Virus genome (UHGV): UHGV-0135847
Origin: a virus
Length of the DNA stretch: 35,435 nucleotides
Direction: 5' to 3' (one strand)
How positions within the stretch are numbered: the first letter of the stretch is position 1; every line of letters starts with the position of its first letter. A program made the position numbers and the translations under genes. The notes below the pieces were generated by a model, which ran no database searches, was not told the DNA's origin, and saw nothing but the letters and a program-made list of their open reading frames with translations. Positions 3,620 to 35,435 of the stretch are shown one piece after another.

Positions 3620-3630
3620 AGGGCGTTGCG

Positions 3631-3873
3631 ATGGGCAAAGAATATAAAACTCTCATTAACAAAGCACTTGAACGATTTTATTTTCGCTTAAGTGCATCAG
3701 GCGCTCATGCTGAACATGCAGCCCGTGACTCATTGACCAGGGCAATCCGGAGTTTGTATGACGTTGCTTTTTACGCTGATGATCTGGATGCACTTAACGA
3801 ACTTTCCGAGCTGATCTGTGCCGCAGAATGCGGGGAACACATTGAACCATATAAGCTGGGGAATATCGCATGA
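3631..3873 (+). CDS. Hypothetical early protein
   Basis: 80-aa ORF; stop overlaps start of the following small ORF (ATGA). Confidence 0.45.
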   Translation: MGKEYKTLINKALERFYFRLSASGAHAEHAARDSLTRAIRSLYDVAFYADDLDALNELSELICAAECGEHIEPYKLGNIA

Positions 3874-3983
3874 GTATATTTATCTCATGGCTTGTTCTGA
3901 TTATTTCGGTGGCCTGCGCCATTGGGATTATGCGAATTATTCATTCAGTAAAAAAGATTGAACGCTTTTTCACTGACGAATAA
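3870..3983 (+). CDS. Possible 37-aa single-pass membrane peptide (not in ORF track, below length cutoff)
   Basis: ATG at 3870 overlapping preceding TGA (ATGA coupling); translation MSIFISWLVLIISVACAIGIMRIIHSVKKIERFFTDE, hydrophobic helix then basic tail. Confidence 0.3.
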   Translation: MSIFISWLVLIISVACAIGIMRIIHSVKKIERFFTDE

Positions 3984-4075
3984 CAGCTTAAACAAAACAC
4001 CAGATTAAACCCGAAAACCTGAAAACTATCCGCATTCGCGGAGGTATTCGCACACGTAAATAACGGAGATATAAA

Positions 4076-4492
4076 ATGAACGCAAAAGAAGAAGGCATTA
4101 TCGACACATTAAAAAAAATATCAGAAGCGGAAGATGAAATGGCTAAAGATGCCGTGAAGCGTAGCCAACATATGGCAGCACTTCACGCACTGACCATTGC
4201 AAAAATCACCGCTGACGCAGCCAAAATTATTGAGGAACAGAGCAAAGAAATCGACACTCTTAAAACACAGTCAACAGTTGCAGCCATGAATCCGTCCAGC
4301 ATTGGACGCTGCATTTATATTCTTGGTTCAGCAATGATGCTGCAATACACCATTATTGCCGAACTGCACGGCAAATACCTGATAACGCCTTACCACACAA
4401 AAGAGTCAGAGCTTCTGACAAATCTCCGCCTGATAGAACGCTCTCAAGCTGTATTCATTGATGACGCGCAACGTGCCGTATTTAACGCATAG
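4076..4492 (+). CDS. Hypothetical early protein
   Basis: 138-aa ORF with GGAG RBS upstream; no motif recognised. Confidence 0.5.
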   Translation: MNAKEEGIIDTLKKISEAEDEMAKDAVKRSQHMAALHALTIAKITADAAKIIEEQSKEIDTLKTQSTVAAMNPSSIGRCIYILGSAMMLQYTIIAELHGKYLITPYHTKESELLTNLRLIERSQAVFIDDAQRAVFNA

Positions 4493-5278: not shown

Positions 5279-5400
5279 GAAACCAGAACATGCACACACA
5301 AAAAAACCGCTTGCCATGCCGCAATCGGTCAGGTTACATTTCCGCTGCACCTCATAAAACGGGTGCCGGGATTCTCAACCCGATACAGAGCAAAGCGCAT

Positions 5401-5903: not shown

Positions 5904-6293
5904 ATGATTGACGCTCATGACTTCACAAGATGGGTGCGCACACAGGACACCCGTCTGGCTCCCGTTCTTCAGGGGTTATTTGATCTCTACATCCGTGGTC
6001 GTGACAACAGAGCACGCACCACAAAACCGGAGAATGCAGACACCCTTTATTTCACAGTAGACGACTGCTACCGCGTGGATTTCACACCACACGGACTGGC
6101 GTTGCACTGCCTGACACCGCACGGCGAATCACTGCTGGCGTATTACGACTCCCCGGCCTCCGTATTTGCAGCAATGCTGGCGCATCGCACTGCTGGCGGG
6201 TGTGCCTCGCTGAGTGAATACACCGCTGAATTTAACCGCCTTTCCGTCCTCTTCTCGCAGGAGTGGCAGCGCGTGACGGGATACCAGCCATGA
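5904..6293 (+). CDS. Hypothetical protein, translationally coupled to replication gene A
   Basis: 129-aa ORF; stop TGA overlaps ATG of gene A at 6290 (ATGA). Confidence 0.5.
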   Translation: MIDAHDFTRWVRTQDTRLAPVLQGLFDLYIRGRDNRARTTKPENADTLYFTVDDCYRVDFTPHGLALHCLTPHGESLLAYYDSPASVFAAMLAHRTAGGCASLSEYTAEFNRLSVLFSQEWQRVTGYQP

Positions 6294-9130: not shown

Positions 9131-9178
9131 AGCGCGCACAAAACAGGCAAAAACGGGATTTCAGAATCCCGTAAACGA
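9078..9178. repeat. Two copies of a 28-bp element, each containing an 8-bp-arm palindrome (ACGGGAYT-N4-AATCCCGT), 73 bp apart, spanning the 3' end of A and the A-parM intergenic region
   Basis: aaacgggactcacgaatcccgtaaatga (9078-9105) vs aaacgggatttcagaatcccgtaaacga (9151-9178), 23/28 identical by eye. Confidence 0.4.
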
Positions 9179-9206
9179 TTAATTAATCAACATAAGGAAA
9201 AGCGAC

Positions 9207-10166
9207 ATGAAAATTTGTATCGACGACGGCTCCACCAACATCAAGCTGGCATGGACTGAGAACGGCGAACGCCGCAACGCCATCAGCCCGAACAGCTTCA
9301 AGTCGGAATGGTCTGCGCCGTTCGGTGGCACGCAGCCCGCGAACTACATGCTTGATGGCGTGCGCTATGGTTTTGATCCGGTCAGCGATCGCTTTGTCCA
9401 GACGACCGACACGCAATACCAGTACAGCGATGTGAATGTCATTGCCATTCATCACGCGCTGGTCAAATCAGGCATCACGCCACAGGAGGTGGATGTGGTT
9501 GTCACCCTGCCACTGAGCGAGTATTTCGACACAAACGCACAGCCGGACATGGCCAACATAAACCGCAAAAAAGCAAACGTTATGCGCCCGGTGGAATACC
9601 AGAACGGCGAAGCATTCACTATCCGTAATGTACGGGTTATGCCTGAATCCATTCCGGCTGGCTTTAAAGCACTGGCTGACATGAGTCCGTTTGAATCCCT
9701 GCTGATTGTGGATTTAGGTGGAACCACGCTGGATGTGGCAAAGGTTCAGGGACAACTGGCAGGTATCAGCCAGGTGTTTTGCGATCCACACGTAGGCGTT
9801 TCCCTGATGGCCGATGCAGTACTGTCGGTGATGGCCACTAACGGTATGCGTACCAGTCACCACATCGCCAATACCATTATCGAACATCGCCATGATGAAG
9901 CCTGGCTGCGCCAGCACATCTACAATGACGCGCATTACGCCAGCCTGATGGCGGTTATTCGTGAAAAGGAAGAAACACTGAAACAACGCGTGATCCGCGC
10001 GCTGGCGGGTTTTTCGGGTTACGGGCGGGTGATGGTTGTCGGTGGCGGGGCGGAGATTGTGGCACCCGCTATCCGCGAAGCCTGCGGAGTTAATGCGATT
10101 TTCATCGCGGACGGGGTGCCACAGTTTGCTCTGGTTAATGGGCTGTACGCAATGGACAAGGAGTAA
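9207..10166 (+). CDS. parM: ParM/StbA-like actin-type segregation ATPase
   Basis: N-terminus MKICIDDGSTNIKLAW and motifs VMPESIPAG, LIVDLGGTTLD, VVGGGAE closely follow plasmid R1 ParM (StbA) as recalled. Confidence 0.8.
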   Translation: MKICIDDGSTNIKLAWTENGERRNAISPNSFKSEWSAPFGGTQPANYMLDGVRYGFDPVSDRFVQTTDTQYQYSDVNVIAIHHALVKSGITPQEVDVVVTLPLSEYFDTNAQPDMANINRKKANVMRPVEYQNGEAFTIRNVRVMPESIPAGFKALADMSPFESLLIVDLGGTTLDVAKVQGQLAGISQVFCDPHVGVSLMADAVLSVMATNGMRTSHHIANTIIEHRHDEAWLRQHIYNDAHYASLMAVIREKEETLKQRVIRALAGFSGYGRVMVVGGGAEIVAPAIREACGVNAIFIADGVPQFALVNGLYAMDKE

Positions 10167-10170
10167 ACCA

Positions 10171-10482
10171 ATGACGACACCAACCAGACGAATAAGTTTC
10201 TATCTGAAGCCCGCCGCCGTCAAGAACGAAGGCGAAGCATGCGCCTGGCTGGACAGCCTTACACCAGAAGCCCGTAAAAACGGCCAACGCGTGGCTTTTC
10301 TGGCCGGGCTGGCGCTTCTGAAAATGAATCCGGCAGAGGCTTACCGACTGGCAGCATGGGCTGACGATGAGGCGTTATCAGTGACACAAACCAGGACAGA
10401 ACGCCTCCTGTCACAGCCAGTACCAACCGCACAGATAACCAGTCAGATGGCCGGAAATATCAGGGCGTTATTTCCTGAATAA
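10171..10482 (+). CDS. parR: ParR/StbB-like centromere-binding adaptor
   Basis: 103 aa starting 5 nt after parM; pattern RRISFYLKP...WLDSL...AFLAGLALL...ALFPE matches R1 ParR layout as recalled; ORF track lists it inside a longer out-of-context frame (10036..10482). Confidence 0.7.
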   Translation: MTTPTRRISFYLKPAAVKNEGEACAWLDSLTPEARKNGQRVAFLAGLALLKMNPAEAYRLAAWADDEALSVTQTRTERLLSQPVPTAQITSQMAGNIRALFPE

Positions 10483-10545
10483 CACAACGTCAGGGCGAGT
10501 TCGCCCTGATCTCCATCTCAGAACATAAACAAGAAGAGCGACTTA

Positions 10546-10929
10546 ATGAGCAAAATCAACTATCAGGCATTACGTGAACGTTATTCACCTGCACCAGTAC
10601 CAAAATGCCCTATTTGCGGCGAAGAAATGTCAATTCAGCGAATATCTGGAGCACAGGTTGTTTATGGCTGCTCCGGTTATGGTGATGATGGAGATTTCAA
10701 AATTGGTCGAACTCTTGCCGACGAACATTATGAAAAATCACGCGTAACAGTGTTGGATGTCGGGGATCCTGAAGTATTGGCGCTACTTGATTGGCTGGAA
10801 ACCAAAGACAACCGAATCGCTGAACTGGAAAAAATCGCCACTGACTATGCACTTAAATTCCAGAAAGCACAGGACGCATTAAAGTACGCCGCTTTGCTGC
10901 ATAGCAGGACAGCGCAGCTACAAGACTAA
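10546..10929 (+). CDS. Hypothetical protein with N-terminal Cys-rich (CPICG...YGC) zinc-ribbon-like segment and C-terminal coiled-coil-like tail
   Basis: 127-aa ORF; Cys pattern read from translation; function unknown. Confidence 0.5.
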   Translation: MSKINYQALRERYSPAPVPKCPICGEEMSIQRISGAQVVYGCSGYGDDGDFKIGRTLADEHYEKSRVTVLDVGDPEVLALLDWLETKDNRIAELEKIATDYALKFQKAQDALKYAALLHSRTAQLQD

Positions 10930-11019
10930 CTTAAAGCGGAAGATTAATACATGGTGAGTCGGGGTAATTTGTTTTTATCCCGACAAATAAACAAAAAAGT
11001 GGACTATCTCTGTAGTATC

Positions 11020-11550
11020 TTATTCAGCATCGTCTCGTGCAGTCTGTGCATACGTCACAACAACGCCCAATGCATTAGTTTTCTTTTCAACATAGATAAT
11101 ATTGTCATATTCATAGTTACCATACGGATAGCAAATAAGAATATTTTTATGCAGATCGGGATCATCAACAAACGCTCCGGAACAGCTTCTTGAACTACCG
11201 GATGTATACTCATACGGTGCAACATATGATGATGTTAGTCCTGGTAAAAAATAAGTCACCATCATAAGAGGGATAATCAGGAATATCCCTGTAAGAATGC
11301 AAGAGCCAGCATAAACCTTCAGGTATTCCGACAGTCCTTTCCAGCCACTTTGCTTCACTACCCCCCTCTTCACCAGAAACAAGGAGAAGAAAAAGGACAT
11401 ACCCATACTACACAAGATGTAATAATTGGATATACGCGAATTAAGATATGTAATCCTGTAGATATCTGCCCTCCACCAGTAAAAGAGGAAAATAATCCCT
11501 AGCACTGAAACAGTCATGCAAATCAAATAAGGATATGAATCTTTCTTCAT
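11020..11550 (-). CDS. AT-rich cargo gene encoding a polytopic inner-membrane protein of unknown function
   Basis: 176 aa; three hydrophobic segments (approx. residues 10-30, 42-60, 82-105) then a soluble Tyr/Gly-rich C-terminal domain; DNA visibly AT-rich versus flanking phage genes; opposite strand to neighbours. Confidence 0.6.
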   Translation of the reverse strand: MKKDSYPYLICMTVSVLGIIFLFYWWRADIYRITYLNSRISNYYILCSMGMSFFFSLFLVKRGVVKQSGWKGLSEYLKVYAGSCILTGIFLIIPLMMVTYFLPGLTSSYVAPYEYTSGSSRSCSGAFVDDPDLHKNILICYPYGNYEYDNIIYVEKKTNALGVVVTYAQTARDDAE

Positions 11551-12080
11551 GTCTTGCGCTCATTAAAATTTCCCTGCTGCGAACAAATTTACCATCCGTT
11601 TTTTGCGCAGAAAACAGCACGATGCACACTGCACGATAGTGCACAAATTTGCACAATTTTTTTGAACGACTTTTTACCCTTCCGGCCCGCATGGCGGCTG
11701 GATCCGTCAAGGATCCGTGCGTGCACAAAAAAACGCGTTTTTTCTGCGCGCAGGTGACGGGGGAACAGCCCGCGTTTCAGGGGGTAAATAGCATCCCCTG
11801 AACGATGTCGCAGCGACACAACAGAATGGCTGTATTTCTCACACTGAGCGTGAAAAAGACGTGAGGGCTTTTGATTTGATGGGGTGAAAGGTAAGGCCGT
11901 CAAAATCGCACTGAGACGGCGAGAACATGCAGTCAACGCGGTGGGATTGCGTAAGAGTCTGACTGTCGATGATGGCAATAAGCAGGAAAGCGTCGTGAAA
12001 TTATCTGACTGATACAGGAGCTGGAGAGTCGGGGCATAAATTTTTTATGCCCCGGCGAAGCAGCAGACAAGCGAAGCGCG

Positions 12081-13127
12081 TCAGGATGTGGGCTGGGTGT
12101 CTAACAGTGCGTAAGGGTTAAAGCGGATCACCTCTTCGCCAAGCCAGTCATTGATGTGCTTCATGGCCTCCATGACGGGCATCAGCTCGTTAATTGCGTA
12201 AACCCGCGCGGCCTTCTCCACATCACCAAACGCGCTTTTTTCGCCCGGCATCGCCCCCATCAGTTGCGGCGGAACGCGGTGCGCAGCCAGCACATCATCA
12301 CGGGATGCCGCCTTAACATTCATGAACTCATCCTTTGCGGTGATCTGCTGGAACGGCAAAATTTGCACCCCCTCTTTGCCCCCGTTGGGCGCATGGATGA
12401 GCACGTTTTTAAACGCACCACCACCACGCGCACCCTGTAACGTTTCTTTCAGGGAGTCCATGCTTTCGCGGTTTACCTGCGCTGCACCGATGTAGATGAT
12501 GCACCCGGCGTGGGATCCATTGTCGTAATACAGTTTTCTGAACATGTCCGCCGAATGAGACAGGCTGGCCGAGAGTAATGCGCCAAGATATTCCGGCATA
12601 CCGTAAATTTCCTGGTTAATGTCCGGATTCATCAGGTGGCACACTTTGCCAGGGCGAAACTGAAACGCGTCCTTGCCATCCTGCACATACCACCATGATT
12701 CAAGATCGCTTCCGCGTCGCATGTATTTCGCCAGTGCGTGCCGTAATTTAAGCGGTTCGCCGAGCATATTGCTTCGAAGCTCAAGGAATGCGTTACCGAA
12801 CACAAACCAGTCCAGCGCCAGCGCCGAGAAATCCTGCCGGGAAAGCAGCGGGTGCGGGATGTAGCAACCGAGTAATACATTGCGCTTAAAGTAAAGCGCA
12901 GACTGATGCCAGGACGTTTGCCGGGCTGCTCTTGCCAGACCGTACCAGTCCACCGGGGTTTCATACCACCGCCCGTTATCAGCACAGTACATATTGTCCA
13001 GCAGGTCATGCCCGGTCAGGCGATAAGGACCATCAAATGTGAATGCACTGAGCGATGATTCTTTCCTGAGCGCATCAGCGAGATCAATGCGTGAACTCAT
13101 GCGCACTTTTTTATTTTTTCTGCTCAT
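12081..13127 (-). CDS. Q: Portal protein (P2 gpQ-type)
   Basis: 348 aa, position and orientation immediately beside the terminase ATPase gene, size typical of P2 Q. Confidence 0.9.
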   Translation of the reverse strand: MSRKNKKVRMSSRIDLADALRKESSLSAFTFDGPYRLTGHDLLDNMYCADNGRWYETPVDWYGLARAARQTSWHQSALYFKRNVLLGCYIPHPLLSRQDFSALALDWFVFGNAFLELRSNMLGEPLKLRHALAKYMRRGSDLESWWYVQDGKDAFQFRPGKVCHLMNPDINQEIYGMPEYLGALLSASLSHSADMFRKLYYDNGSHAGCIIYIGAAQVNRESMDSLKETLQGARGGGAFKNVLIHAPNGGKEGVQILPFQQITAKDEFMNVKAASRDDVLAAHRVPPQLMGAMPGEKSAFGDVEKAARVYAINELMPVMEAMKHINDWLGEEVIRFNPYALLDTQPTS

Positions 13128-14878
13128 CAGAACTCCATAACCGTGAAACGCTCGTTTTCTCCTTCGCCGCCAATCGGTTCGTTAATGACAGCAAGCATGG
13201 TTGCCCACGCAAGGTCGCCGTGGCTGATCCCCCTCGCGCGGTCCGTTTCGTAAGTGATAAAGCCGCCCGGTGTTTTCACCTTACGCACGGCGTTAAAGGC
13301 CGCGACCAGCTCGCGTTCGGCGCGATCGTATTCCCACCGCCCGGCACGCATTATTTGCAGCATTTTCAGTACCAGCGACCGTTTTGATGACAGCGTGAAG
13401 GTGTACGGAATAGCAGCAGGGAAAAACCGTTTCACTATCTGATAAACAGCCTCCCCGTTCCCGCCCGTCACATCAATGCCGATGTGTTCCACGTTGTAGC
13501 GATACGTGAACTCTTCAATGACTCTGGCCTGTTCTTCAAACTCCAGCCCCTGAACGCGTCGCGTCTCCACCGTTCGAAAACGGCCACCAGGAACAGCCGG
13601 AGGAACCACCACGGACACAGCGCCGCTGTCGCCGTTGCCACTGCTGCCGTTTGCGTCATACCCAATCCATACCGGACGATTCCCCATCGGGCGGGGAGCA
13701 AAAGGTTTCCAGTCTTTCCAGTCGTCGTATCCGTCAACACCGCAGCCAATCAGGATATTCAGGTTAAATGCCGATTCCCCTTCGCGAACAAACTCACACA
13801 TATAGAGATTGAGGAACTCGTCTTCGGTGTTTTCATCACGGATTTCGTCAATATCGGTGTGTTTCCAGCCGTGATTAACCACATCTTCCAGCGTGACAAT
13901 TTGCCGCCACGTCCGGTCAGGGCAGATAAGCCCGTTATGCAGCGTTTTCCAGTCCACAGAAAAACGCTGGCGTTTATGCGAGGCCTTTTTCTCGTTCCAG
14001 CGGTCGCCGTTCCAGTAGGCGTATGCCTCGTGCGTTTCGGTGGATGGCGTGGAGAAGTAGGTGCGCCGCAGTCCGCTGAGGGTTGCCATAGCGCCAGCTA
14101 CCTTGCGCAGTTCAGCAAAGCGACTGACCCAGAAAAATTCATCAAAATAAAAATTGCCCGTATAGGACTGTGCCGACGCAGCAGAAGTGCCGAGAAAATG
14201 CAGCTCTGCGCCGTTGGAGAGGATGATTTTATCGCCCCCTTTCAGCTCCACATCAACTTCAGCCGCGGCCTTCTGAATAATGCTTTTAAACTGGAACGCC
14301 TGACGACGCGACGCAGACAAAAAAATCTGGTTACGCTGGTAAGGTTGCGCCACATCGTCACGCAGCGCCATCAGCAGAGCTTCCTGTGCAAAATACCAGG
14401 TCGCCCCAATCTGTCGGGATTTCAGGATCATCCTGTTACGTATCCCGGCTTCCCTGCAAAGGGTCAGGGAGTCAAACCAGCCCCGCTGATGCCACTCCAG
14501 CCTGCTGATGATTTTTTCCCGCAGTGCGGCAATCTGTTCCGGCGTGAAATGATTTTTGAGTTTTTTCGCCCGGCCTTTCTTTCCTGTGACCGTCGCATCC
14601 GGCTGGCCATCATGCAGTTTTTTAAGCTGCCGGGTCAGCAGGTCTATTTCCTTAAAGTCACCGCCTGTTTTATTCTGTTTTTCAGTAAGCTGGATGAGGC
14701 GCGCATCGATGGACTGCGTGACACGCTGCACGGGTGGCGTTTCATCCCACTGGTCGCGTTTTTTCCACGCATAAATCGTGTTCGGGTTTATTCCCATCAG
14801 ACGTGATATTTCTGCGGGCGGATAACCCTGCCAGTAAAGTTGCCGCGCACGCTGGCGCACAAAAGCGTCCTGAATCAT
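13127..14878 (-). CDS. P: Terminase large (ATPase) subunit (P2 gpP-type)
   Basis: 583 aa; N-terminal MIQDAFVRQRARQLYWQGYPPAEISRLMGINPNTIYAWKKRDQWDE HTH-like start typical of gpP; stop overlaps Q start by 1 nt. Confidence 0.9.
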   Translation of the reverse strand: MIQDAFVRQRARQLYWQGYPPAEISRLMGINPNTIYAWKKRDQWDETPPVQRVTQSIDARLIQLTEKQNKTGGDFKEIDLLTRQLKKLHDGQPDATVTGKKGRAKKLKNHFTPEQIAALREKIISRLEWHQRGWFDSLTLCREAGIRNRMILKSRQIGATWYFAQEALLMALRDDVAQPYQRNQIFLSASRRQAFQFKSIIQKAAAEVDVELKGGDKIILSNGAELHFLGTSAASAQSYTGNFYFDEFFWVSRFAELRKVAGAMATLSGLRRTYFSTPSTETHEAYAYWNGDRWNEKKASHKRQRFSVDWKTLHNGLICPDRTWRQIVTLEDVVNHGWKHTDIDEIRDENTEDEFLNLYMCEFVREGESAFNLNILIGCGVDGYDDWKDWKPFAPRPMGNRPVWIGYDANGSSGNGDSGAVSVVVPPAVPGGRFRTVETRRVQGLEFEEQARVIEEFTYRYNVEHIGIDVTGGNGEAVYQIVKRFFPAAIPYTFTLSSKRSLVLKMLQIMRAGRWEYDRAERELVAAFNAVRKVKTPGGFITYETDRARGISHGDLAWATMLAVINEPIGGEGENERFTVMEF

Positions 14879-26171: not shown

Positions 26172-26666
26172 TCAGAACAGCCCTTTAACTGAACTGGCCG
26201 CGTTGTTAATGGATGCTGTCACCTTATCTTTGAAGCCGGACAGCATATCGCTGAACGATGAGGATTGCAGGCGCTCCCGCAAATCCTCATCACAGCGTTC
26301 AAGGGTCAGTGAAAATTCTATCTTTTTCGCCTTACCGTAGCGATCAAACTCGGAACGGGTCGTATTCGTTCCGGTCAGGACATACATGCCGTAAATCTGC
26401 CCGACGCCATCAATAAGAGGCCAGGGGCGTCCTGTATACGCCTGCGTGGTCAGCAGCGACAGCGACACTTCGCCACCTGTAATTTCAGGATAAAGCACAC
26501 CAGAAAGAACAATACGATCATCGCCTGCCCCGATATACTGCCATCTTGCTGAACGGTTAACGCGTTCATTTTTCACATGCCGCCAGCTTTTGCTTTGCTG
26601 TAACTGCTGATGCGGCAACGTGCGCAGCTCAAAAACAAACATGCCGTAGATCATCATCATGGCCAT
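26172..26666 (-). CDS. U: Tail protein U
   Basis: 164 aa; MAMMMIYGMFVFELRTLPHQQLQQSKSWRH start and overall pattern like P2 U. Confidence 0.8.
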   Translation of the reverse strand: MAMMMIYGMFVFELRTLPHQQLQQSKSWRHVKNERVNRSARWQYIGAGDDRIVLSGVLYPEITGGEVSLSLLTTQAYTGRPWPLIDGVGQIYGMYVLTGTNTTRSEFDRYGKAKKIEFSLTLERCDEDLRERLQSSSFSDMLSGFKDKVTASINNAASSVKGLF

Positions 26667-26672
26667 GACTCC

Positions 26673-29480
26673 TCAATCTTTATCGTAAAAACTGCCACGC
26701 CCGGCACGGGCGCGCCGTTCCATTTCTGCCCTGACCATTTCACCGACCAGTTTCGCCAGTTCGCGGGGATTCTGCGTAACGACGTTATGCAGATGAACAT
26801 GAATTTCACCGCCAAATCCTGAGGCAACAGGTTCCCGGTTACGCGAAGGTGCTGGGGCAGATGCCACTGGCGATCGTATGGCTTCCGCCACCGGGCGGGA
26901 GCTGGCCGCAACAACAGGGACCAGCGCCGGAGGCAGCGGGGCCGGAACCACAGGCGTGATATTAATTGCGGGGGCAGGCTTACTGACCTGCGCAATCTTC
27001 CGCTCCTGCCACTCCCCACGAACAGCAAGTGCGCGGGGCAGGTTCTTAAAGACAATATCGCCGGGGCCAATGCGTTTTTTCGTCTCATCAACCAGCTTAC
27101 CTGTGTTATCAGCAATTTTGCTGAGTCTGCGTAGCGTACCGGTATTGCTGTCTGTGAGCGGTTTATTATCTTTGGGTTTATCACCTCCGGTGCCATTGCC
27201 ATTTTCTACAGGCTTCGGCGGATTGATTTTCGCCAGGTCCCCCTGAAGCAAGGCAACCTTGTCCTGAAGAATGGCCGCACGCTGTGCGTCTTCGATTTTC
27301 TTTCTCGCCCTTTCCGCTTCATCCGGAAGCACACCGAGTTTTTCAAGTATCCACGCCAGCGTATCCAGCAACATTTTTGCAGGCGTCAGAACAAGCTGTA
27401 GCGCGCCACCAAGAGCGTTACCGAATATCTCGCCAGCACTGGTACATTTATCCAGCGTTTCCTTGCTGGACTCCATCGGTGACAGCAGCGATTTAAACCA
27501 GTTAAACACCTGGCTGATCCCGCTTCCGATTGCGTCAAAAACAGGACCAAACCGTTCAAAGGTTTCACGCAACGGGTTCAGCCTTTCCATAATCCCGCTG
27601 AACACCCCGGCAAAAAATGCCCTGATGGGATCCCAGTATTTCCAGATAAGAACGGCAGCTCCGGCAAGCGCAGCCACGATAAGACCAACCGGACTGAACA
27701 GCGCCCCGATAGCGCCTCCCAGCAAAGAAACGGAACCCGTCACCATTCCCCACAGCGCAGGCAACACTCTGACAACATTCATTGACCGGGTAAGAATGTC
27801 AAAACCAAGACGCAGGGTGGCCAGCTTCCCGTAAAGCACCCCAATAACCAGCGACAACGAGCCAATCGTTGCAGTCATTGCCAGCAACGCACCGCCTGCT
27901 ATCAGTAGCTGGCGCGTCAGCACCGGATGGGCCTGCGCCAGCGAGGTGATTTTTTCAAGCACCCGCGTGAGCCACTGCGTGACAGAACGCAGCGGACCGT
28001 CAACCAGATCACTGATGCGAATACGAAGACCTTCCCATGCGCTGTCGAGATTTTTCAGGTCCCCATCAAGATTATCGGCCATTACTTTTGCGACGCGATC
28101 GGCCTCTCCCCTTGCCCCCTGCAATTCTCTGGTCAGTTTTTGCAGCTCTCCTGAACCAGCCGCCGCAACAAGCGTCTGCAAACCAACGAACGCCTCTTCT
28201 CCGGCGATGTCCTTGAAGAAGGAGACCTGGTCCACCTGTCCGTATTTTTGTGTCGCCTTATAGAGATCAAGCAGCACATCCTCCATCGGGCGCATTTTGC
28301 CTCTGGCGTCAGCAACTGACACCCCCAGCTCTTTCAGTGCATCAGCCGCAGCTTTTGGCGGTGATGCAAGGCGGGACAAACTTGCGCGCATGGCCGTGCC
28401 AGCATCGCTTCCGCGAAGACCATTATTGGCAAGCATCCCGGCCATGGCCGCCGCTTCTTCAAGACTGATACCAAGTTTTGCGGCAACCGGACCGGTATAC
28501 TTCATGGTTTCGCCCAGCGCGCGTAAATCAGTATTGGTCCGGGTAAATGCTGCTGTCAGCGTATCGCCCACCCGGTCCATTTGATCGGCTGTCAGGTTGA
28601 ACTGTGTGAGGATATTGGAGCCTATATCCGCCGTCTCGCCGAGTTCGACGCCACCTGCCAGCGCCATATTAAGAACACCGGGCAATGCGGCCTGAATGGC
28701 CTGCGGAGTAAAACCAGCCATTGCCAGAAAGCTCTGCCCACTGGCGGCATCACTCGCAGTAAACTGTGTTTCAGAGCCAAGTTTTAACGCCTGCTCACGC
28801 AGCGCCTTAAACTGCGGGCTGTTTTTGTCGATTCGCGTCAGTGCCTGAACGCGGGACATCTCTTTGCCGAACCCGATCGCAGGCTGCAAAAAACGCCCGG
28901 CAGCATAGCCGCCCGCCGCTGCCGCACCAATTGCCAGCGCACCACCTGTTTTCAGTTTTCCCGCGGTTTCCTGCGCGCGCGAATACCGCTCACGCGCCCG
29001 CGTTACACGCGCAAGCGCCTGCCGTTCGCGTTCAAGCTGGTTGTTGTACTGTTCGGTGCGTCTGATGGCCTGCTGGATGGTGTTATCGCTGCCTGTCAGG
29101 GAAATGCCGTGGCGTTTCAGCTCTCCGCCAAGCTCCCGCATTTTCTGAATTTCCCGTGTGCGCGATTCATTCAGGCGTTCAAGCCGGGTGCTTAACTGCT
29201 GCATCAGCTTTTGTTGTTTTTCGCTGAGCACTGTACCCGTGCGTTGTAACTGATTAAGGGCGTTAAGCTGGCGTCGTGCTTTCACGATACCCGCATCCGC
29301 TTTACTGACAGCGTCGCGGGCGCGCTCAAATGATCGCGCCTGACGCTCGAGATTTTTGATCGCCCCCTGCGTTCGCTGGATGGAGTCACCAAACTGCCCC
29401 ATCAGGCGGCGGGCGTTTTCGGCAGGCCGGGTCAGCCTGTCAACGGCGCTGAAAGCGACCCGGATATCAAGAGTCTTCAT
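26673..29480 (-). CDS. T: Tail tape measure protein (P2 gpT-type); start uncertain (29480, 29489 or GTG 29516)
   Basis: ~935 aa, coiled-coil N-terminal half, Gly/Ala-rich hydrophobic middle, position after E/E'. Confidence 0.85.
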   Translation of the reverse strand: MKTLDIRVAFSAVDRLTRPAENARRLMGQFGDSIQRTQGAIKNLERQARSFERARDAVSKADAGIVKARRQLNALNQLQRTGTVLSEKQQKLMQQLSTRLERLNESRTREIQKMRELGGELKRHGISLTGSDNTIQQAIRRTEQYNNQLERERQALARVTRARERYSRAQETAGKLKTGGALAIGAAAAGGYAAGRFLQPAIGFGKEMSRVQALTRIDKNSPQFKALREQALKLGSETQFTASDAASGQSFLAMAGFTPQAIQAALPGVLNMALAGGVELGETADIGSNILTQFNLTADQMDRVGDTLTAAFTRTNTDLRALGETMKYTGPVAAKLGISLEEAAAMAGMLANNGLRGSDAGTAMRASLSRLASPPKAAADALKELGVSVADARGKMRPMEDVLLDLYKATQKYGQVDQVSFFKDIAGEEAFVGLQTLVAAAGSGELQKLTRELQGARGEADRVAKVMADNLDGDLKNLDSAWEGLRIRISDLVDGPLRSVTQWLTRVLEKITSLAQAHPVLTRQLLIAGGALLAMTATIGSLSLVIGVLYGKLATLRLGFDILTRSMNVVRVLPALWGMVTGSVSLLGGAIGALFSPVGLIVAALAGAAVLIWKYWDPIRAFFAGVFSGIMERLNPLRETFERFGPVFDAIGSGISQVFNWFKSLLSPMESSKETLDKCTSAGEIFGNALGGALQLVLTPAKMLLDTLAWILEKLGVLPDEAERARKKIEDAQRAAILQDKVALLQGDLAKINPPKPVENGNGTGGDKPKDNKPLTDSNTGTLRRLSKIADNTGKLVDETKKRIGPGDIVFKNLPRALAVRGEWQERKIAQVSKPAPAINITPVVPAPLPPALVPVVAASSRPVAEAIRSPVASAPAPSRNREPVASGFGGEIHVHLHNVVTQNPRELAKLVGEMVRAEMERRARAGRGSFYDKD

Positions 29481-29996
29481 TGTCTGCATTCCCGCTGCGA
29501 AGTGCCGCCCGCTCACGCCAGCTAACCACTTCGCCGGGCGTCATCATGAAGATTTCGGCGGGCGACCAGTTAAAAATGGCGGCAATATCCGCCACAAAGT
29601 CTTCTATGTGCTCAAAGCACACAACCGTGATCAGGCTTCCGTCGCCTGTTCGTTCTTCCCGCCAGAGTCCGCACCGCTCAAAAAATTTACGGCAACCACA
29701 CATAACTGAATAAAATCACGGGATGCCATTTTTTTGATCGTCACTTCATCCAGTCGCGGTGATGTCACGCGTGACAGCAGCGTAAACATGGATTCCGCTT
29801 TCAGATTCAGCACATCAGACAGCGACAAATCTCGCAGAGATCCAGCCTGCTCAATAGCCCCGGTGATCTCCACATACGTGATTTTTTCGCCGCCTCGCTC
29901 AATTGGTTGGGTAAGTTTTACGCCACGCTCGCTGGTTTCTTTCACAGTGTCAGCAACGACCGTGTTTTCGGTATCGATGTTTTTCGTCTCTTTCAT
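29467..29996 (-). CDS. Tail assembly chaperone E+E' fusion made by programmed -1 ribosomal frameshift
   Basis: Slippery T_TTT_TTG in E zero frame at plus-strand 29679-29685; -1 frame continues as FFERCGLWREE... (ORF 29467..29703). Confidence 0.65.
29631..29996 (-). CDS. E: Tail assembly chaperone E
   Basis: 121-aa ORF upstream of T; contains slippery heptamer near 3' end. Confidence 0.75.
   Translation of the reverse strand: MKETKNIDTENTVVADTVKETSERGVKLTQPIERGGEKITYVEITGAIEQAGSLRDLSLSDVLNLKAESMFTLLSRVTSPRLDEVTIKKMASRDFIQLCVVAVNFLSGADSGGKNEQATEA
29679..29685 (-). other. -1 frameshift slippery heptamer TTTTTTG
   Basis: Read on minus strand; codons AAT TTT TTG (N F L) in E frame. Confidence 0.6.
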
Positions 29997-30050
29997 CAGG
30001 AAACTCCTTTCAGTCAGAGGCGACGCACTGCGCCGCCTGCATATTACTTA

Positions 30051-30563
30051 TCAGCCAAGCCCGAGCGCGGAACGGATGCGATCGGGCACAATGTCCTTGC
30101 CGTCCTTCCGGTAAATGAAGTTCAGCAGGTCAATCTCCCACAACGGGCGATCGTTAACACTCAGCTTGTAGTAGGTGTTTTTAATGGCGTAAGTGTGTGA
30201 TGTGGCTTCGCCCTGTTTGGCTTCCCCCATATCAATTTCCGTCACACGTCCGCGCATTTCGACTTCATACAGGTCGCTTTCTGCATCGGTGTAGTATTCA
30301 CCCGCAAAACGCAGCAGCGTGCCGTCAATCGTGCCGCCATACTTAAGGAACAGCTCACGAACTGCGCCCCCCATGACAAAGCTCGCATCAAGCGCGGAGT
30401 CGTCCAGGCCGAGATCAATACTTACCGCCCCCATCATGCCACCACCCCGGTAGCTGTCGGTTTTGCGCGTCAGCTTAGGCAAAGTGACGGACGTCACCTT
30501 ACCCACTTCGTTTTCACCATCCACAAACAGCGTAAAAAAGCGAAGATGTTTTGGCACAGCCAT
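30051..30563 (-). CDS. FII: Tail tube protein (P2 gpFII-type)
   Basis: 170 aa; position directly after sheath gene; pattern as P2 FII. Confidence 0.9.
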   Translation of the reverse strand: MAVPKHLRFFTLFVDGENEVGKVTSVTLPKLTRKTDSYRGGGMMGAVSIDLGLDDSALDASFVMGGAVRELFLKYGGTIDGTLLRFAGEYYTDAESDLYEVEMRGRVTEIDMGEAKQGEATSHTYAIKNTYYKLSVNDRPLWEIDLLNFIYRKDGKDIVPDRIRSALGLG

Positions 30564-31747
30564 CAGGCACCTCCCAGCACCGCAAATGCGGGTTCAAAGT
30601 ATTCATCAGTAAACGTCTGGTAAAGCTCCATGTCTTCCAGTGGCGGAACGGGCGTATATTTGTAGCGAATACGCACACGCCCCTGACGTAAATCCGTGGT
30701 GCTGTTATCCACCACGTCATACCAGCACTCCGCGCCAATCAGTTTCCCGGCAGTCACCAGTGAATCCAGTTTTGCCCTGATGGCACTGATAACATCCTTC
30801 ACGTTCGCAGGCGTCAGTGGACTGTCGATGGTTTCAAACTGCGCTTCCGCAATTGAATCAGCCAGCACCTGTGCGGTTCGGGTATACACCTCAAAGATGT
30901 AGGCGTTCGTTTCCGGTGTGCGGTTGCCCCAGAAGCGGAACCCGTTGCGACGAATAATGGTCGTGATTTCTTTGTTGTTGAGGCTGTTGGCATCGCTGTC
31001 TTCGGCCTGCAACGACCAGAACACATGCCTCGACATCCCCAGCACATTTTTAACCGGAACGTTGGACAATGATTTGTGCCAGCCCTGCTCATGGTCAATG
31101 TACGCACGAAGGCCGCACGCATAGGCAGGCGCGGGGAACGTTTCGTTTTTGCCACTTTTCGGGTTGTAGGCGATGAAGTCCGGCCATAAGAGCATCACCT
31201 CACGTTCGTTGAATTTCTGGCGGTAGGTAATCGCCTCAGCCATCGTGTTACAGCCGTGACATGAGGCATACACAAACGCGCGCAGTTTACCTGCAATCAC
31301 GCACAGGGATTTTGTTACAGCCTCCGTGTCCAGCTCCGGCGCGGCCAGAATACGCGGACGGTATCCGATGCTTTCATCCTGCTCTGCAACAAGCAGCGCA
31401 TACATCCCCGTATAGCTGCCGTCATCCTCAGAACCACCGATAACCAGTTGATCCTGCGTCTTTCCGTCTTCTTCTTTGTGTTCAGCCACGCGAACGACGA
31501 CCACCTTTGTGCTCACCTGGTCTGCGATGGCCTTAAGCGCACGATAAAGCGTCCCCGTTGTCCCGCATTTTCCCAGCACATCATTGACGCGGGTCAGCAG
31601 TGTGGGCTTGTTCAGCGGGAACAGCTCCGCGTCCGCATCATCCGCCGTTGCCACGATACCGATAACGCTGGAATCAACATCGTTAATCGCTGTTACCAGG
31701 TCGGTATTTTCCGTAACACGGGCACCATGAAAACGAGTTTCACTCAT
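30563..31747 (-). CDS. FI: Contractile tail sheath protein (P2 gpFI-type)
   Basis: 394 aa; motifs FPLNKP, KLRAF, WPDF, EQGWHK, LIRRNGFRFWGNRT, YTRTAQV, YTPVPPLE parallel P2 FI. Confidence 0.9.
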   Translation of the reverse strand: MSETRFHGARVTENTDLVTAINDVDSSVIGIVATADDADAELFPLNKPTLLTRVNDVLGKCGTTGTLYRALKAIADQVSTKVVVVRVAEHKEEDGKTQDQLVIGGSEDDGSYTGMYALLVAEQDESIGYRPRILAAPELDTEAVTKSLCVIAGKLRAFVYASCHGCNTMAEAITYRQKFNEREVMLLWPDFIAYNPKSGKNETFPAPAYACGLRAYIDHEQGWHKSLSNVPVKNVLGMSRHVFWSLQAEDSDANSLNNKEITTIIRRNGFRFWGNRTPETNAYIFEVYTRTAQVLADSIAEAQFETIDSPLTPANVKDVISAIRAKLDSLVTAGKLIGAECWYDVVDNSTTDLRQGRVRIRYKYTPVPPLEDMELYQTFTDEYFEPAFAVLGGA

Positions 31748-31904: not shown

Positions 31905-33014
31905 ATGACCGACACCACCATGCAATTGCTCAGTCAGGGCACAGACCCCGTGAAAATGCCAGATTTTGATATTCTCGCGGAGGGGAAAACGCTGTCAGGC
32001 GTGGCAGAGCGCCTGATGAGCCTGTCACTGACCGACAACCGGGGATTTGAGGCGGACCAGCTCACCATCACGCTGGATGATGCGGATGGTCAGTTGCAGC
32101 TACCGCCACGGGGCGCGCGCCTGACGGTTCTCATTGGCTGGAAAGGAGAACCGCTGACAGAAAAAGGCACTTACATTGTTGATGAAATCGCTCACGAAGG
32201 ACCGCCGGACAGGCTGACTGTTTCAGCCAGAAGCGCAGATTTTCGGGATGAATTTAACGTTAAACGTGAAGTGTCCTGGCATGATGTGACCGTTGAGCGC
32301 GTGGTATCCGCCATCGCTCATCGGTACGGCCTGAAACCGCAAATCAGCGAAATGCTGATGGATATCGAAATCGACCACGCCGACCAGACCGAAGAAAGCG
32401 ACATGTCCTTCCTCACGCGCATGGCGGAAATGCTGGGCGCAATCACCACGGTAAAAAGCGGTAACCTGTTATTCATCATGCCCGGCGGTGGCGTGAACGC
32501 ACAGGGCCAGCCGTTGCCCTCGTTCGCCATCACACGCAGCAGCGGCGATCGCCATCAGTTCCGCATTGCTGACCGCGAAGCGTATACGGGGGTACGCGCT
32601 TACTGGCTTGATCTTAATTACGGGAAAAAGAAAAAAGTCAGCGTGAAACGCCGCAAACCGCCAAAACCCAAAAAGGAGAAAAGCAGCAGCCGTGAAGGTG
32701 ATTATATGGAAGGCGCAGAAGGCAATGTGTTTGTGTTACGCAAGACTTATCAGAACGAGCAGGCAGCAAGACGCGCAGCGGCGGCAAAGTGGCAGCAGCT
32801 ACAACGCGGAGCCGCATCATTTTCCATCACGCTGGCGCGTGGACGTGCAGAACTCTACCCCGAAATGCATGGCACGGTAACAGGATTTAAAAGCGAGATT
32901 GATAATCAGGACTGGATTATTGCAAAAGCCGAGCACACTATTGATGACAGTGGCTTTACCACACAGCTTGAGCTTGAAGCAAAAATCCCGGAATGGATAG
33001 CGGAAACAGAATGA
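31905..33014 (+). CDS. D: Tail protein D (late control gene D product)
   Basis: Start ATG 31905 after GGGAGGGA RBS; ~369 aa; divergent from FI. Confidence 0.85.
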   Translation: MTDTTMQLLSQGTDPVKMPDFDILAEGKTLSGVAERLMSLSLTDNRGFEADQLTITLDDADGQLQLPPRGARLTVLIGWKGEPLTEKGTYIVDEIAHEGPPDRLTVSARSADFRDEFNVKREVSWHDVTVERVVSAIAHRYGLKPQISEMLMDIEIDHADQTEESDMSFLTRMAEMLGAITTVKSGNLLFIMPGGGVNAQGQPLPSFAITRSSGDRHQFRIADREAYTGVRAYWLDLNYGKKKKVSVKRRKPPKPKKEKSSSREGDYMEGAEGNVFVLRKTYQNEQAARRAAAAKWQQLQRGAASFSITLARGRAELYPEMHGTVTGFKSEIDNQDWIIAKAEHTIDDSGFTTQLELEAKIPEWIAETE

Positions 33015-33413
33015 GCAAATTAGATGTATTGACTCAAACCAGAACTGACACACTCACAGCACAGTGCCAGACCCAATCTGGCAGCCCGCTTTGTGCCTAG
33101 AGTAGGTGTTGCTTATGTAACAGTTAATCCACGGATAGTGGTCATGAATGCTGGTTGAAGTTGTATTGCCATGAGTGGTCAATTAGGGACTCACTTATTA
33201 TCGCGTGCTCACCATTGATGGGTAAGATCATGCATTTCGGCTACTGTACTTCGCGAATCCTCCACACACAGGCAACACCTGATTTAAGAACAGAGGGAGA
33301 TGATGACGCAAGGAAGATTTATTATCGTGCATGTGGCAGATGATCTTTTAGCTGCCGGAGTGATAAATTACACCTATTTTCGATAAGTGTTTTTGTTATA
33401 GAACATTAATTTC

Positions 33414-34553
33414 GTGGGAAACAATAAAGTGAAATTAGGAAGAAATGATAAGTGCTGGTGTAATTCAGGACTTAAGTATAAAAAGTGCCATCTTGGTCGA
33501 GACCGTGAAACTCCGGTATCCAAAGCCGAGGCACTGAAATTTTCAAAGTCTCTCTCGCAGAGAAAGGCATGTTATGCGCCAGCATCCATGCACGAAGATT
33601 GTGATAAACGCATCGTTCAGGCGCATACGATATCTAAGAGCAGTAGCCTTAAGGCGATCGCCGACTCCAGCAATCACGTCATGGGGGTGATAATGAACTT
33701 AGCAAGCCTGATGAGAAACAACGGAAAATGGCTTCCCGAGAAGATCGGTATCAATCAGGCATCCACTTTTACAGGATTTTGTGCAGTTCATGACAGAATC
33801 TTGTTTTCATGCCTAGAGAACGAAAAATTTACAGGCACGGACGAGCAGTGCTTTGCCTTAATGTTTCGTTCATTGTCTAAAGAAATTTACGCCAAAGAAG
33901 GGGGAGTGCTATCTTCCGATTTTGCTAAAAATGCCGATAAAGGAAAGCTACAAGTTGAACAGTATTATATTCAGAAATTAATCGACCAGCACCAAAGTGG
34001 CTTAAATGCAGCAATAATTGAATTAAATAATCTTAAAACTAGCCTCGACCGCATCCTACTTAGCAGGCAATTTTCAGAAATTGAAAGTGTTATCTTCACT
34101 TTTGCAGAGCCTTTACCAATTGTAGTTTCGTCAATTCTTTCACCGGAGAGGGATTTCGATGGGACCAAAATTCAGGATTTGAGCGATCTTACAGTGTCGG
34201 CGGAACAAGTATGTTTCAATGCTTTTTCCTGCGGAGGTAAGGGATATGTAGTGTTCAGTTGGCTGAGAACTTCAACAATTATCAGACGTTTTATACGGAC
34301 ACTAATTAAGATCCCGGCTAACAGGATGTTCAATACCCTTCTGTATTTTTTCTTCACAAAGGCCGAAAATACATATTCATCCCCTGAGTGGTGGGACAGG
34401 CTCAGTGATAAACAGCGAGAGAATATCGGCAACATGATTATGTCAGGGGTTGAATTTTTTGGCAGACCTACATCACAGGTTGATCATTCCGTTGATTATA
34501 ACGCCGCTGCACTTGAAGAGATAACATGCAGCAACAACGAAATTTGCAGCTGA
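33414..34553 (+). CDS. AT-rich cargo gene: protein with N-terminal SEC-C zinc-binding motif and ~340-aa uncharacterised domain (start GTG 33414 or GTG 33429)
   Basis: GRNDKCWCNSGLKYKKCH matches the SecA C-terminal SEC-C motif GRNDPCPCGSGKKYKQCH; rest of protein unrecognised; DNA visibly AT-rich. Confidence 0.65.
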   Translation: MGNNKVKLGRNDKCWCNSGLKYKKCHLGRDRETPVSKAEALKFSKSLSQRKACYAPASMHEDCDKRIVQAHTISKSSSLKAIADSSNHVMGVIMNLASLMRNNGKWLPEKIGINQASTFTGFCAVHDRILFSCLENEKFTGTDEQCFALMFRSLSKEIYAKEGGVLSSDFAKNADKGKLQVEQYYIQKLIDQHQSGLNAAIIELNNLKTSLDRILLSRQFSEIESVIFTFAEPLPIVVSSILSPERDFDGTKIQDLSDLTVSAEQVCFNAFSCGGKGYVVFSWLRTSTIIRRFIRTLIKIPANRMFNTLLYFFFTKAENTYSSPEWWDRLSDKQRENIGNMIMSGVEFFGRPTSQVDHSVDYNAAALEEITCSNNEICS

Positions 34554-34842
34554 ATGTTTACATGCTGTTAGAAAAAGCGGGCTGAACAATCATTTCGGGA
34601 TTGTAACAGATAAGATGGCACTGCCCGCTTGCTTCCCGATATGTACCTCAGCCAATAAACTTATGTAAGCAACCGATTTCCATTTATGCGGAGGTTATCA
34701 AAGTTGTTGGAGTTGCGAACTTCCGCTCTTCGCACAAAGCGTACCGCTAGGTTTGATTGTATTCTGGCTGCGCAAACTGTCAGTTGGAGTCTGAGCTATT
34801 ACAACTTAGAATAGCGGCAGCACCACGTTAAGGGAGGTCGCT

Positions 34843-35103
34843 ATGTTCCGTTGTCCGCTTTGTGGCGCATCTGCCCGAATCCGCACCAGTCGTCCGGAAA
34901 ACGATTCAAACACTGTGCGGCAAAAGTATTACCAGTGTAACAACCTGGAATGCGGCGTATGCTTCTCAACACTGGAAGCTTTCCATAAATTCACATCAAA
35001 ACACGCCTCCGGCGTTCACTCTTCGGAAGGTATCCCGTGGCATGAGCTGCCAGCTTCACACAGGGGAAACAATCAGATGAGTTTGCCTTTACCTCAGAAT
35101 TAA
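34843..35103 (+). CDS. ogr: Ogr/Delta-family zinc-finger late transcription activator
   Basis: MFRCPLCGASARIRTSR...YYQCNNLECGVCFSTLE parallels P2 Ogr MFHCPLCQHAAHARTSR...YHQCQNVNCSATF; GGGAGG RBS. Confidence 0.85.
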   Translation: MFRCPLCGASARIRTSRPENDSNTVRQKYYQCNNLECGVCFSTLEAFHKFTSKHASGVHSSEGIPWHELPASHRGNNQMSLPLPQN

Positions 35104-35294
35104 CAGGCAGAATTGCCGGAGTAACAAAAAAACGATAGATTACCCGCGGGTGCCTTTCGGCTGATGGTCGGAGGGAATACCCGAAGGCCGGATGTGGAAA
35201 GGCCCCGGAAAACATTTCTGTTTAACCGAGGCCCTAACATATCTACCTTAAGCAAGTGATAGGTTAGCGCCTCTCCAACAAAGGAGCAAGCGCT

Positions 35295-35435
35295 ATGTCG
35301 CAAAAATCGCTTACGGCCATCACGTTCTGCGTGACGGTAATCCTCATCATCTGGATGCTACACGGTTCGCTGTGTGAAATACGGATGAGCTTCTGGGGAG
35401 CGGAGTTTGCGGCGTTCTTACAGTGTAAGCAGTAA
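35295..35435 (+). CDS. hok: Hok/Gef-family type I toxin (46 aa), not in ORF track
   Basis: MSQKSLTAITFCVTVILIIWMLHGSLCEIRMSFWGAEFAAFLQCKQ: TM helix plus SLCEIR and E(F/L)AAFL motifs as in E. coli HokA and R1 Hok; AAGGAG RBS 8 nt upstream; stop is the last codon of the window. Confidence 0.7.
   Translation: MSQKSLTAITFCVTVILIIWMLHGSLCEIRMSFWGAEFAAFLQCKQ

Follow-up and report, generated by a model that had tools for sequence, protein, structure and literature searches.

Between the genes for the tail protein gpD and the late-gene activator Ogr of a P2-like prophage (the virus genome UHGV-0135847, whose entire 35,435 nucleotides are referred to below as the window) there lies an island of AT-rich DNA with a single long open reading frame (ORF), and the protein that this encodes is, as judged by sequence comparison, a full-length homologue of Rugutis and so a member of a known, validated family. 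Rugutis itself (pUCCL633_059, 359 amino acids) is a SEC-C protein from the Lactococcus plasmid pUCCL633A, and has been described as a single-gene, abortive infection (Abi)-like anti-phage system (Grafakou et al. 2024, PMC11381338). On balance, the island is probably a cassette acquired horizontally, with one gene that encodes a member of the Rugutis family, these being abortive-infection-like anti-phage systems of a single protein each.

The original prediction for this stretch, made from the nucleotide sequence without database searches, had described two normally adjacent genes held apart by about 1.8 kb of AT-rich DNA, made up of roughly 400 bp of non-coding sequence followed by a 379-residue ORF, and all of this was borne out. 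From the end of gpD (33014) to the start of ogr (34843) there are 1,828 bp, with a GC content of 0.426 for positions 33015-34842 as against 0.526 for the remainder of the window and 0.539 for D; in PhiR44_2 and Chuche, which are related phages, just 42 bp lie between the D stop and the ogr start, so that some 1.78 kb in the window is extra DNA. The inserted DNA proper corresponds to positions 33025-34803 (1,779 bp; GC 0.42 versus 0.53), while the 41 bp directly preceding ogr (34802-34842) belong to the phage backbone and lie outside the insert. The gene (33414..34553, (+) strand, 379 amino acids) is preceded by 399 bp of non-coding DNA and is intact, being the sole long ORF of the island. Its GTG start at 33414 is kept in four diverged alleles and was taken as the true start because the next in-frame GTG is not conserved, being GAG in one of them.

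The SEC-C protein and the Rugutis family

Evidence for the relationship to Rugutis comes from several kinds of comparison. A tblastn search of plasmid sequences gave 27%-identical proteins of 359 residues on Lactococcus dairy plasmids, including pUCCL633A (E = 4e-27 to the latter), and a BLASTP comparison with the Rugutis ORF of pUCCL633A (L003, positions 5995-7071) gave 26% identity over 358 residues with E = 2e-37. When profiles were compared using hhalign, the probability was 99.96% and E was 7e-39 over 340 columns. A series of short motifs is common to the two proteins, namely C..C..AH(T/S)I, A(S/T)TFTGFCxxHD, EQ..YR, IQDL, W and EN..P.W. The original prediction had proposed an undescribed single-protein defence factor; as a description of credible single-gene defence cargo this stands, but the protein cannot be called undescribed. 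Homology to a known protein, which had been named in advance as something that would count against the proposal, was indeed found, and in the case of Rugutis it supports the defence reading while removing the claim to a new kind of system.

The only part of the protein that is recognised by the family libraries is the N-terminal SEC-C zinc-binding motif, noticed already in the original prediction, which occupies residues 9-26 (GRNDKCWCNSGLKYKKCH; positions 33438..33491, (+) strand; PF02810, E = 2e-8). Its ligands follow the pattern C14-x-C16-x8-C25-H26 of a canonical SecA-type zinc knuckle, and the motif matches the SecA C-terminal zinc-domain peptides deposited in the PDB as 1OZB and 1SX0. 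Apart from this motif nothing was matched in Pfam (searched with the protein and 50 homologues), PADLOC, PHROGs or NCBIfam; for the C-terminal 340 residues, where the first reading had likewise recognised nothing, there was no match in any of these four libraries and no fold match in the PDB or BFVD. Matches in PADLOC-DB v2.0.0 were all of SEC-C-motif length (22-45 residues; E1-E2, E2 and PDC-S12), with no match to a full-length system, and a check against PADLOC, which the original prediction had suggested, thus returned no defence system call.

In RefSeq the protein carries the name “YecA family protein” (WP_001317900.1; L001, positions 8400-9539), but this appears to be a misannotation at the level of the motif, because only the SEC-C motif matches the YecA model: the score with the NCBIfam model PRK10396 is 17.9 bits against a cut-off of 149, only profile positions 197-220 being matched, and the other NCBIfam matches also involve just the motif (about 24 residues) and fall far under their cut-offs. 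YecA is a 221-residue UPF0149 protein with its motif at the C-terminus, whereas the prophage protein has it at the N-terminus and is unrelated over its other 350 residues; the likeness to YecA, and to SecA C-terminal metal-binding proteins, is limited to the 18-20-residue C-x-C-x8-C-H zinc knuckle.

This bears directly on one alternative reading, according to which the protein would be a factor for lysogenic conversion or host physiology, for instance one associated with SecB or the ribosome through its SecA-like zinc domain, and would not serve phage defence at all. The metal-binding domains of SecA, YecA and YchJ contact SecB or ribosomes, SEC-C is the sole annotated feature here, the RefSeq name suggests such a role, the PDB matches include 1OZB, 1SX0 and 9L6B, and some homologues are found amid housekeeping genes. 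Nevertheless such a role seems unlikely, given that PRK10396 and the other models cover only the 24 or so motif residues and score far under their cut-offs, that the distribution of the family is patchy and on mobile elements, the site itself being a hotspot full of defence-type genes, and that a full-length homologue has demonstrated anti-phage activity (PMC11381338).

An AlphaFold2 model of the prophage protein, made with 50 homologues, has a predicted local distance difference test score (pLDDT) of 88.9 and a predicted template modelling score (pTM) of 0.87, and is laid out as a zinc knuckle, a small beta domain, a long helical hairpin (residues 143-217), a second beta sheet and a helical C-terminus. 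A search of the PDB with this fold gave no match, and the AlphaFold model of Rugutis is also of high confidence and without a PDB relative (PMC11381338). Across an alignment of 22 members drawn from Proteobacteria, Firmicutes, Chloroflexi, Acidobacteria, Gemmatimonadota and Fusobacteria the invariant residues comprise the SEC-C cysteines together with C53, H71, C123, H126, D127, E135, R152, E157, K161, Q183, Q254 and N319, while C63, D175, D247, W283, E318 and W326 are near-invariant; in a larger alignment of 50 family members (A1) there are 40 invariant residues, 23 of which are still invariant across several phyla. From their pattern of conservation, C53, C63, C123 and H126 are probably the ligands of a putative second metal site, and the invariant polar residues (H71, D127, E135, R152, E157, K161, Q183, Q254 and N319) may make up a catalytic cluster; since the polar residues are invariant all the way from Firmicutes to Proteobacteria, an enzyme active site would fit better than a pure scaffold. 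An HNH/His-Me or PD-(D/E)xK reading of H71...C123xxH126D127 was considered from the motifs, but it found no support from fold or profile and is not claimed.

Members of the family are typically about 370 residues long. There were 296 matches in the clustered database, and at E<=1e-30 a profile search gave approximately 1,500 representatives of clusters formed at 50% identity; when genome contigs were scanned only some 15 true family loci emerged, the matches being mostly to SEC-C alone. The gene stands by itself, in that its neighbours differ in all 12 of the diverse contexts compared, with none conserved. These contexts include a P4-like integrase/AlpA/DUF927 island beside PARIS in Salmonella and a prophage edge in Klebsiella aerogenes, and the family is found also on plasmids of Lactococcus, Rhizobium and Sphingomonas and in about 55 viral contigs of IMG/VR, often close to the contig end.

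Proposed function of the gene

Membership of the family follows from the comparisons just described; a defence role in E. coli, and likewise the trigger and the toxic activity, would be carried over by homology from what is reported for Rugutis. The latter acts past adsorption and DNA injection, and lowers plaquing of skunaviruses and of phage c2 (PMC11381338). Mutants of c2 that escape it all map to the ATPase domain of TerL, the large terminase subunit (Mosterd et al. 2025, PMC12184496), and expression of c2 TerL cuts viability solely in cells that bear Rugutis (PMC12184496). If the prophage protein works in a similar way, it would be expressed at a low level in lysogeny (it starts with GTG, lacks a Shine-Dalgarno sequence and may face an antisense promoter situated within the right end of the island) and would lie dormant until a superinfecting phage had reached a late stage, at which point it would respond, directly or indirectly, to the large terminase (ATPase domain) of that phage. 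Its toxic activity would then be switched on and the infected cell would yield no progeny, with the outcome that the resident prophage and the host population were protected. The gene itself would have been delivered to the D-ogr junction in a 1.78-kb element having inverted-repeat ends of about 95 nucleotides and a 7-9-bp target duplication.

A number of points weigh against this proposal. Experimental support is confined to the Rugutis of Lactococcus, for which the assays used a high-copy vector, and the Gram-negative members would share the activity by homology; with an identity to Rugutis of only 26%, the trigger and the range of phages affected may differ. Even for Rugutis the position of TerL as the direct trigger is unsettled, given that TerL from an escape mutant is still toxic in its presence (PMC12184496), and in the present case the prophage's own TerL (13127-14878) would have to be such that it does not trigger the protein. 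PADLOC v2.0.0 (2023) has no model for the family, and therefore could provide no independent defence call. Several homologues are lone genes amid housekeeping genes, an arrangement that fits defence islets without being diagnostic of them. Lastly, a promoter scan upstream of the gene found no convincing promoter or strong sigma-70 consensus.

A narrower role may also be envisaged, in which the protein interferes with P4-type satellites, or excludes related P2-like phages, by sensing their packaging machinery. The link between Rugutis and the large terminase (PMC12184496) implicates packaging, which is the very step hijacked by P4 satellites, the Salmonella homologue lies within a P4-like island, and the gene is the only defence candidate of its phage; however, homologues occur on plasmids and in chromosomal islets that have no P2 or P4 connection, and specialisation of this kind is thus distinctly unlikely.

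The remaining possibility concerning the function of the gene is that the cassette is a decaying, unexpressed remnant. No Shine-Dalgarno sequence was found before the GTG start and, as noted, there is no consensus promoter; low-GC DNA is typically silenced by H-NS in E. coli; and derivatives disrupted by insertion sequences (H11, H12) or by deletion (L176) do exist. All the same, we regard a remnant without current function as very unlikely, the ORF being unbroken, with an identity of 99% or more in 80 genomes, and with 40 residues invariant in 50 members and 23 across several phyla, and the upstream leader being conserved along with it between genera. This non-coding leader or regulatory region (33105..33413, (+) strand) travels with the gene, and has a nucleotide identity of about 83% to the copies in Salmonella (L007) and Pantoea (L008), the contexts of which are unrelated.

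Some further features of the island may be mentioned here. A search of Rfam gave no match within it. An inverted repeat found 22 nt past the stop codon by a repeat search (34575..34630, (+) strand; AAGCGGGC...GCCCGCTT) is a possible transcript-end hairpin, though it is without a T-run and was not called in a terminator scan. Within the right end, in what is here termed its long form, there is an inward-facing sigma-70-like site (34783->34756, (-) strand; CTGACA-16-TACAAT, a promoter-like match at 10/12 positions), which is antisense to the Rugutis-like gene. A similar site is kept at equivalent positions of the right ends of two other cassettes (L006 and L175), and the middle segment that holds it is missing from most other right ends.

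The D-ogr junction and the ends of the island

The left backbone flank of the island is formed by the gene for gpD, a tail or baseplate hub protein (31905..33014, (+) strand; PF05954 Phage_GPD, E = 7e-17), the orthologue of which in PhiR44_2 is 1,110 nt long and annotated GpD, and the right one by ogr (34843..35103, (+) strand; PF04606 Ogr_Delta, E = 5e-14). Occupancy of the junction, a comparison suggested by the original prediction, was surveyed in 73 phages of IMG/VR that have gpD at least 99% identical and retain ogr. The junction is empty in 43, with a gap of 40-42 bp, and occupied in the other 30, by at least 19 kinds of insert of 1.0-3.8 kb and GC 0.32-0.41; just two of the 73 contain the Rugutis-like gene. 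Cargo is swapped at this site, and its content (L096-L175) is rich in genes of defence type: there are PifA (E = 1e-64), PDC-S06, PDC-S31/DUF2971, a GmrSD-like DUF262-HNH protein, two PIN proteins (PIN_4 and PIN_12), a HEPN protein, DUF3800, a ParA-like protein, a cassette of two genes (195 and 185 residues), the first of which encodes a product with a PRTase-like match in PADLOC (PsyrT), and a set with radical-SAM and His-Xaa-Ser-repeat proteins, together with several unknowns, while the large cargo proteins of 495, 932 and 1039 residues gave no match in Pfam or PADLOC. D-ogr is a genuine hotspot for cargo in P2-like prophages.

Overlooked in the original prediction were the inverted-repeat ends of the island, which are transposon-like, and a duplication of its target. 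The ends are imperfect inverted repeats of about 95 nt with tips 5'-TG...CA-3'. The left one (33025..33121, (+) strand) starts with 5'-TG, and in it an outer module, TGTATTGACTCAAAC..CTGACA, and an inner one, GCCCGCTTTGTGCC.., can be distinguished; the right one, in the long form already mentioned (34705..34803, (-) strand), finishes with ...TATTACA-3'. Without gaps, the two arms match at 48 of 82 positions, as against 26.5 +/- 2.3 for shuffled sequences, and 0 of 5000 shuffles reached 48. A hidden Markov model (HMM) of the ends, built without this locus and used with nhmmer, found exactly two matches in the 35-kb window, namely the left end (E = 8e-11) and the right end (E = 8e-12). Immediately outside there is a direct repeat (C)A(A/C)TTAGA, a putative target-site duplication, with a left copy AATTAGA at 33018..33024 (9-bp form CAAATTAGA, 33016-33024) and a right copy ACTTAGA at 34804..34810 (9-bp form CAACTTAGA, 34802-34810); in the empty sites of PhiR44_2 and L099 there is a single copy, GCAACTTAGAATAGCGG.

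Homologous ends and the same duplication accompany most of the unrelated D-ogr cargoes, and ends of this family are seen elsewhere. An allele 86% identical to the present one (L006, 6790-8417) has ends of the same kind within a different island (RepL, H-NS, DUF4755/6), flanked by a repeat GATAGC. Using the end HMM, inverted pairs were found to enclose a gene for a 433-residue unknown protein (G-FI hotspot of another P2-like prophage), two small genes belonging to a third prophage (L179, 4001-4862), where there is a perfect 7-bp repeat TATCATT, and the classic fun(Z) of phage P2 itself (L280; 15276-15368 on the (+) strand and 17514-17421 on the (-) strand). L178 has ends of this family at 3456-3542 and 5338-5382. 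Cargo-less pairs of 242 bp, resembling miniature inverted-repeat transposable elements (MITEs), occur in the G-FI hotspot of several P2-like phages of IMG/VR, directly 3' of the tail-fibre assembly gene (L248, 2331-2572; also L250, L259, L268, L271, L275 and L279). In L248 the 242-bp pair is followed by cargo that is closed by a third end, and which includes an ORF for a 228-residue tyrosine-recombinase-like protein (3598-4284). Near-consensus end matches are present in 564 of 5,426 E. coli genomes, at no more than three per genome.

Given such ends, it is natural to ask if the island is simply an insertion sequence (IS) with the SEC-C protein as its transposase or recombinase. The inverted ends of about 95 nt with 5'-TG...CA-3' tips, the single ORF, the 7-9-bp direct repeat that is single in empty sites and the length of 1.78 kb are all as might be expected for an IS, as is the fact that another mobile element (L006) holds a copy that is 86% identical and has ends homologous to these. 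However, the same ends surround many unrelated cargoes at D-ogr and also P2 fun(Z), and 20 of 22 tested family loci outside E. coli lack inverted ends, so that the proposal is largely refuted; there are, moreover, only 1-2 copies per genome, the protein shows neither a fold nor a motif of RNase-H, HUH, serine- or tyrosine-recombinase type and no transposase or recombinase domain in Pfam, and the Lactococcus homologue functions as a defence gene. Taken together these points make an IS extremely improbable.

A different way of accounting for the ends would be that the island is one of a new class of non-autonomous, transposon-like cassettes (with inverted ends of about 95 nt, tips of 5'-TG...CA-3' and about 7 bp of duplicated target) that carry single defence genes or small gene sets into particular intergenic positions of P2-like phages, namely D-ogr and G-FI, fun(Z) of P2 included, and into other mobile elements. 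This is put forward tentatively, as a possibility that falls somewhat short of being probable. No transposase is present within any cassette seen, the only ORF of the island in the window being the Rugutis homologue, and a search for empty sites corresponding to the L006 and L179 contexts found none, the sole related sequence for L006 being a deletion derivative in E. coli M8. The ends were not recognised as those of any IS. The alternative to a transposon-like cassette is an ancient insertion, of which the conserved flanks now act as homology arms for replacement of the cargo. A search of the accessible literature for inverted repeats around P2 cargo genes gave no description of the ends, which is not in itself proof of novelty, and according to the latest survey of P2/P4 hotspots the mechanism of exchange is unknown and transposable elements are nearly absent there (PMC13586616).

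Two other ideas concerning the ends were dropped. That they might be strongly structured, or form attC-like hairpins, is not borne out by single-strand folding, which was no more stable than for shuffled sequences (z from -1.4 to +0.2). A link to IS256, based on a 74% match to the left end beside an IS256-family transposase (L015), proved to involve a solo end remnant, and IS256 has separate inverted repeats of its own.

Across the 5,426 complete E. coli genomes 80 contain the whole island, at full length and with no less than 99% identity, among them strains of O157:H7, O26, O103 and O111, with one or two copies per genome. In about 340 further genomes only the 41 bp preceding ogr were matched, which is consistent with a D-ogr junction lacking the island, adjacency to D being unchecked for these. 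As regards individual genomes, the O157:H7 strain PV15-279 (L001, 1-10421) has the island in a degraded P2-like prophage by the tRNA Leu-Cys-Gly/pgsA/uvrC region, in which fragments of IS1203 and IS30 have cut short the tape-measure gene, and where a macro-domain gene and a serine O-acetyltransferase gene, both absent from the window, lie near the tail-fibre genes. Decayed variants are known from E. coli O111:H11 (H11 and H12), with ISVsa5 (IS4-like) inserted in the island, from E. coli M8 (L176), where a deletion has left the left end and leader but removed the gene, and from E. coli M19 (L015), which retains a solo left end between IS1 and IS256.

The rest of the prophage and comparison with known systems

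The 35-kb window constitutes a complete P2-like prophage. Its genes include those for the integrase (1-1002, (-) strand), the gpA replication protein (6263-9130), the portal (12081-13127, (-) strand), the large terminase gpP (13127-14878, (-) strand) and a tail fibre and tail fibre assembly protein, and then gpU, the tape measure, FII and FI, all on the (-) strand, followed by gpD, ogr and sok/hok. The FI-FII-(E)-T-U tail block (26172-31747) is inverted relative to P2 (L280), lying on the other strand from D and the genes for the tail fibre, and D therefore stands alone, divergent from FI. Directly 3' of ogr there is a hok/sok-type toxin-antitoxin (35148-35435), consisting of a sok RNA match (RF01794, 35148-35305, E = 3e-8, under the gathering score) and a Hok-like ORF (35295-35435), the stop codon of which forms the final bases of the window.

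The classical A-Q (old/tin) hotspot, at 9207-11978, contains a gene for plasmid segregation of the ParM type (9207-10166) and one resembling Ead/Ea22 (10546-10929), together with two small ORFs of unknown kind on the (-) strand (11020-11550 and 11589-11978). None of these has a PADLOC match or belongs to a recognisable defence system, and it is for this reason that the Rugutis-like gene is taken to be the only defence candidate of the prophage.

Rugutis is a validated defence protein that has been studied only in Lactococcus. A family member in prophages of the P2 type in E. coli shifts the question of mechanism to E. coli, P2 and defined phage collections, the best system that genetics has to offer, with the invariant residues as a ready list for mutation, and a misleading RefSeq product name is corrected along the way. 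In addition, the shared ends and target duplication around unrelated cargo, including fun(Z), offer a testable lead as to how hotspots gain and exchange defence genes; if the cassette class is real, it would explain in concrete terms how defence cargo is swapped so rapidly, something left unexplained by the P2/P4 survey, which expressly did not ascribe it to transposable elements (PMC13586616).

It remains to compare the island with systems already described. With non-autonomous transposons and cargo-bearing MITE-like elements (integron mobilisation units, TIMEs), as with the PeSL cassettes (PMC2839356), it has in common short conserved boundaries around unrelated cargo at hotspots of phages. 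The boundaries here take the form of inverted repeats, tipped TG...CA and accompanied by a duplication of the target, and exist also as cargo-less 242-bp pairs, whereas the PeSL “mobile regulatory cassettes” of T4-type phages have direct repeats of a promoter and stem-loop and work by homologous recombination (PMC2839356); the difference from transposons is that no cognate transposase was found for the cassettes and that copy number is low (three or fewer per genome).

Closer to hand are the conversion genes of P2 (fun(Z), tin and old) and the P2/P4 hotspots (Rousset et al. 2022, PMC9122126; PMC13586616; iLund4u, 10.1101/2024.10.15.618418), which likewise have cargo consisting of one non-essential, low-GC gene at a fixed position between genes, exchanged among near-identical phages, fun(Z) of P2 even having the same family of ends. 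The site, however, is D-ogr here and A-Q or G-FI there, and these studies mention neither the Rugutis-like family nor the repeat ends.

It is with Rugutis that the likeness extends to the protein itself. The homology is over the full length, the SEC-C motif is N-terminal in both, each is a single-gene module on a mobile element and has a confident predicted model without a PDB relative, and 23 invariant residues are common across a superfamily alignment that includes Rugutis (A6). The differences are that the fourth zinc ligand is Cys in Rugutis but His in the prophage protein, and that the one is found on a plasmid of a Gram-positive organism and the other in a P2-like prophage of a Gram-negative one.

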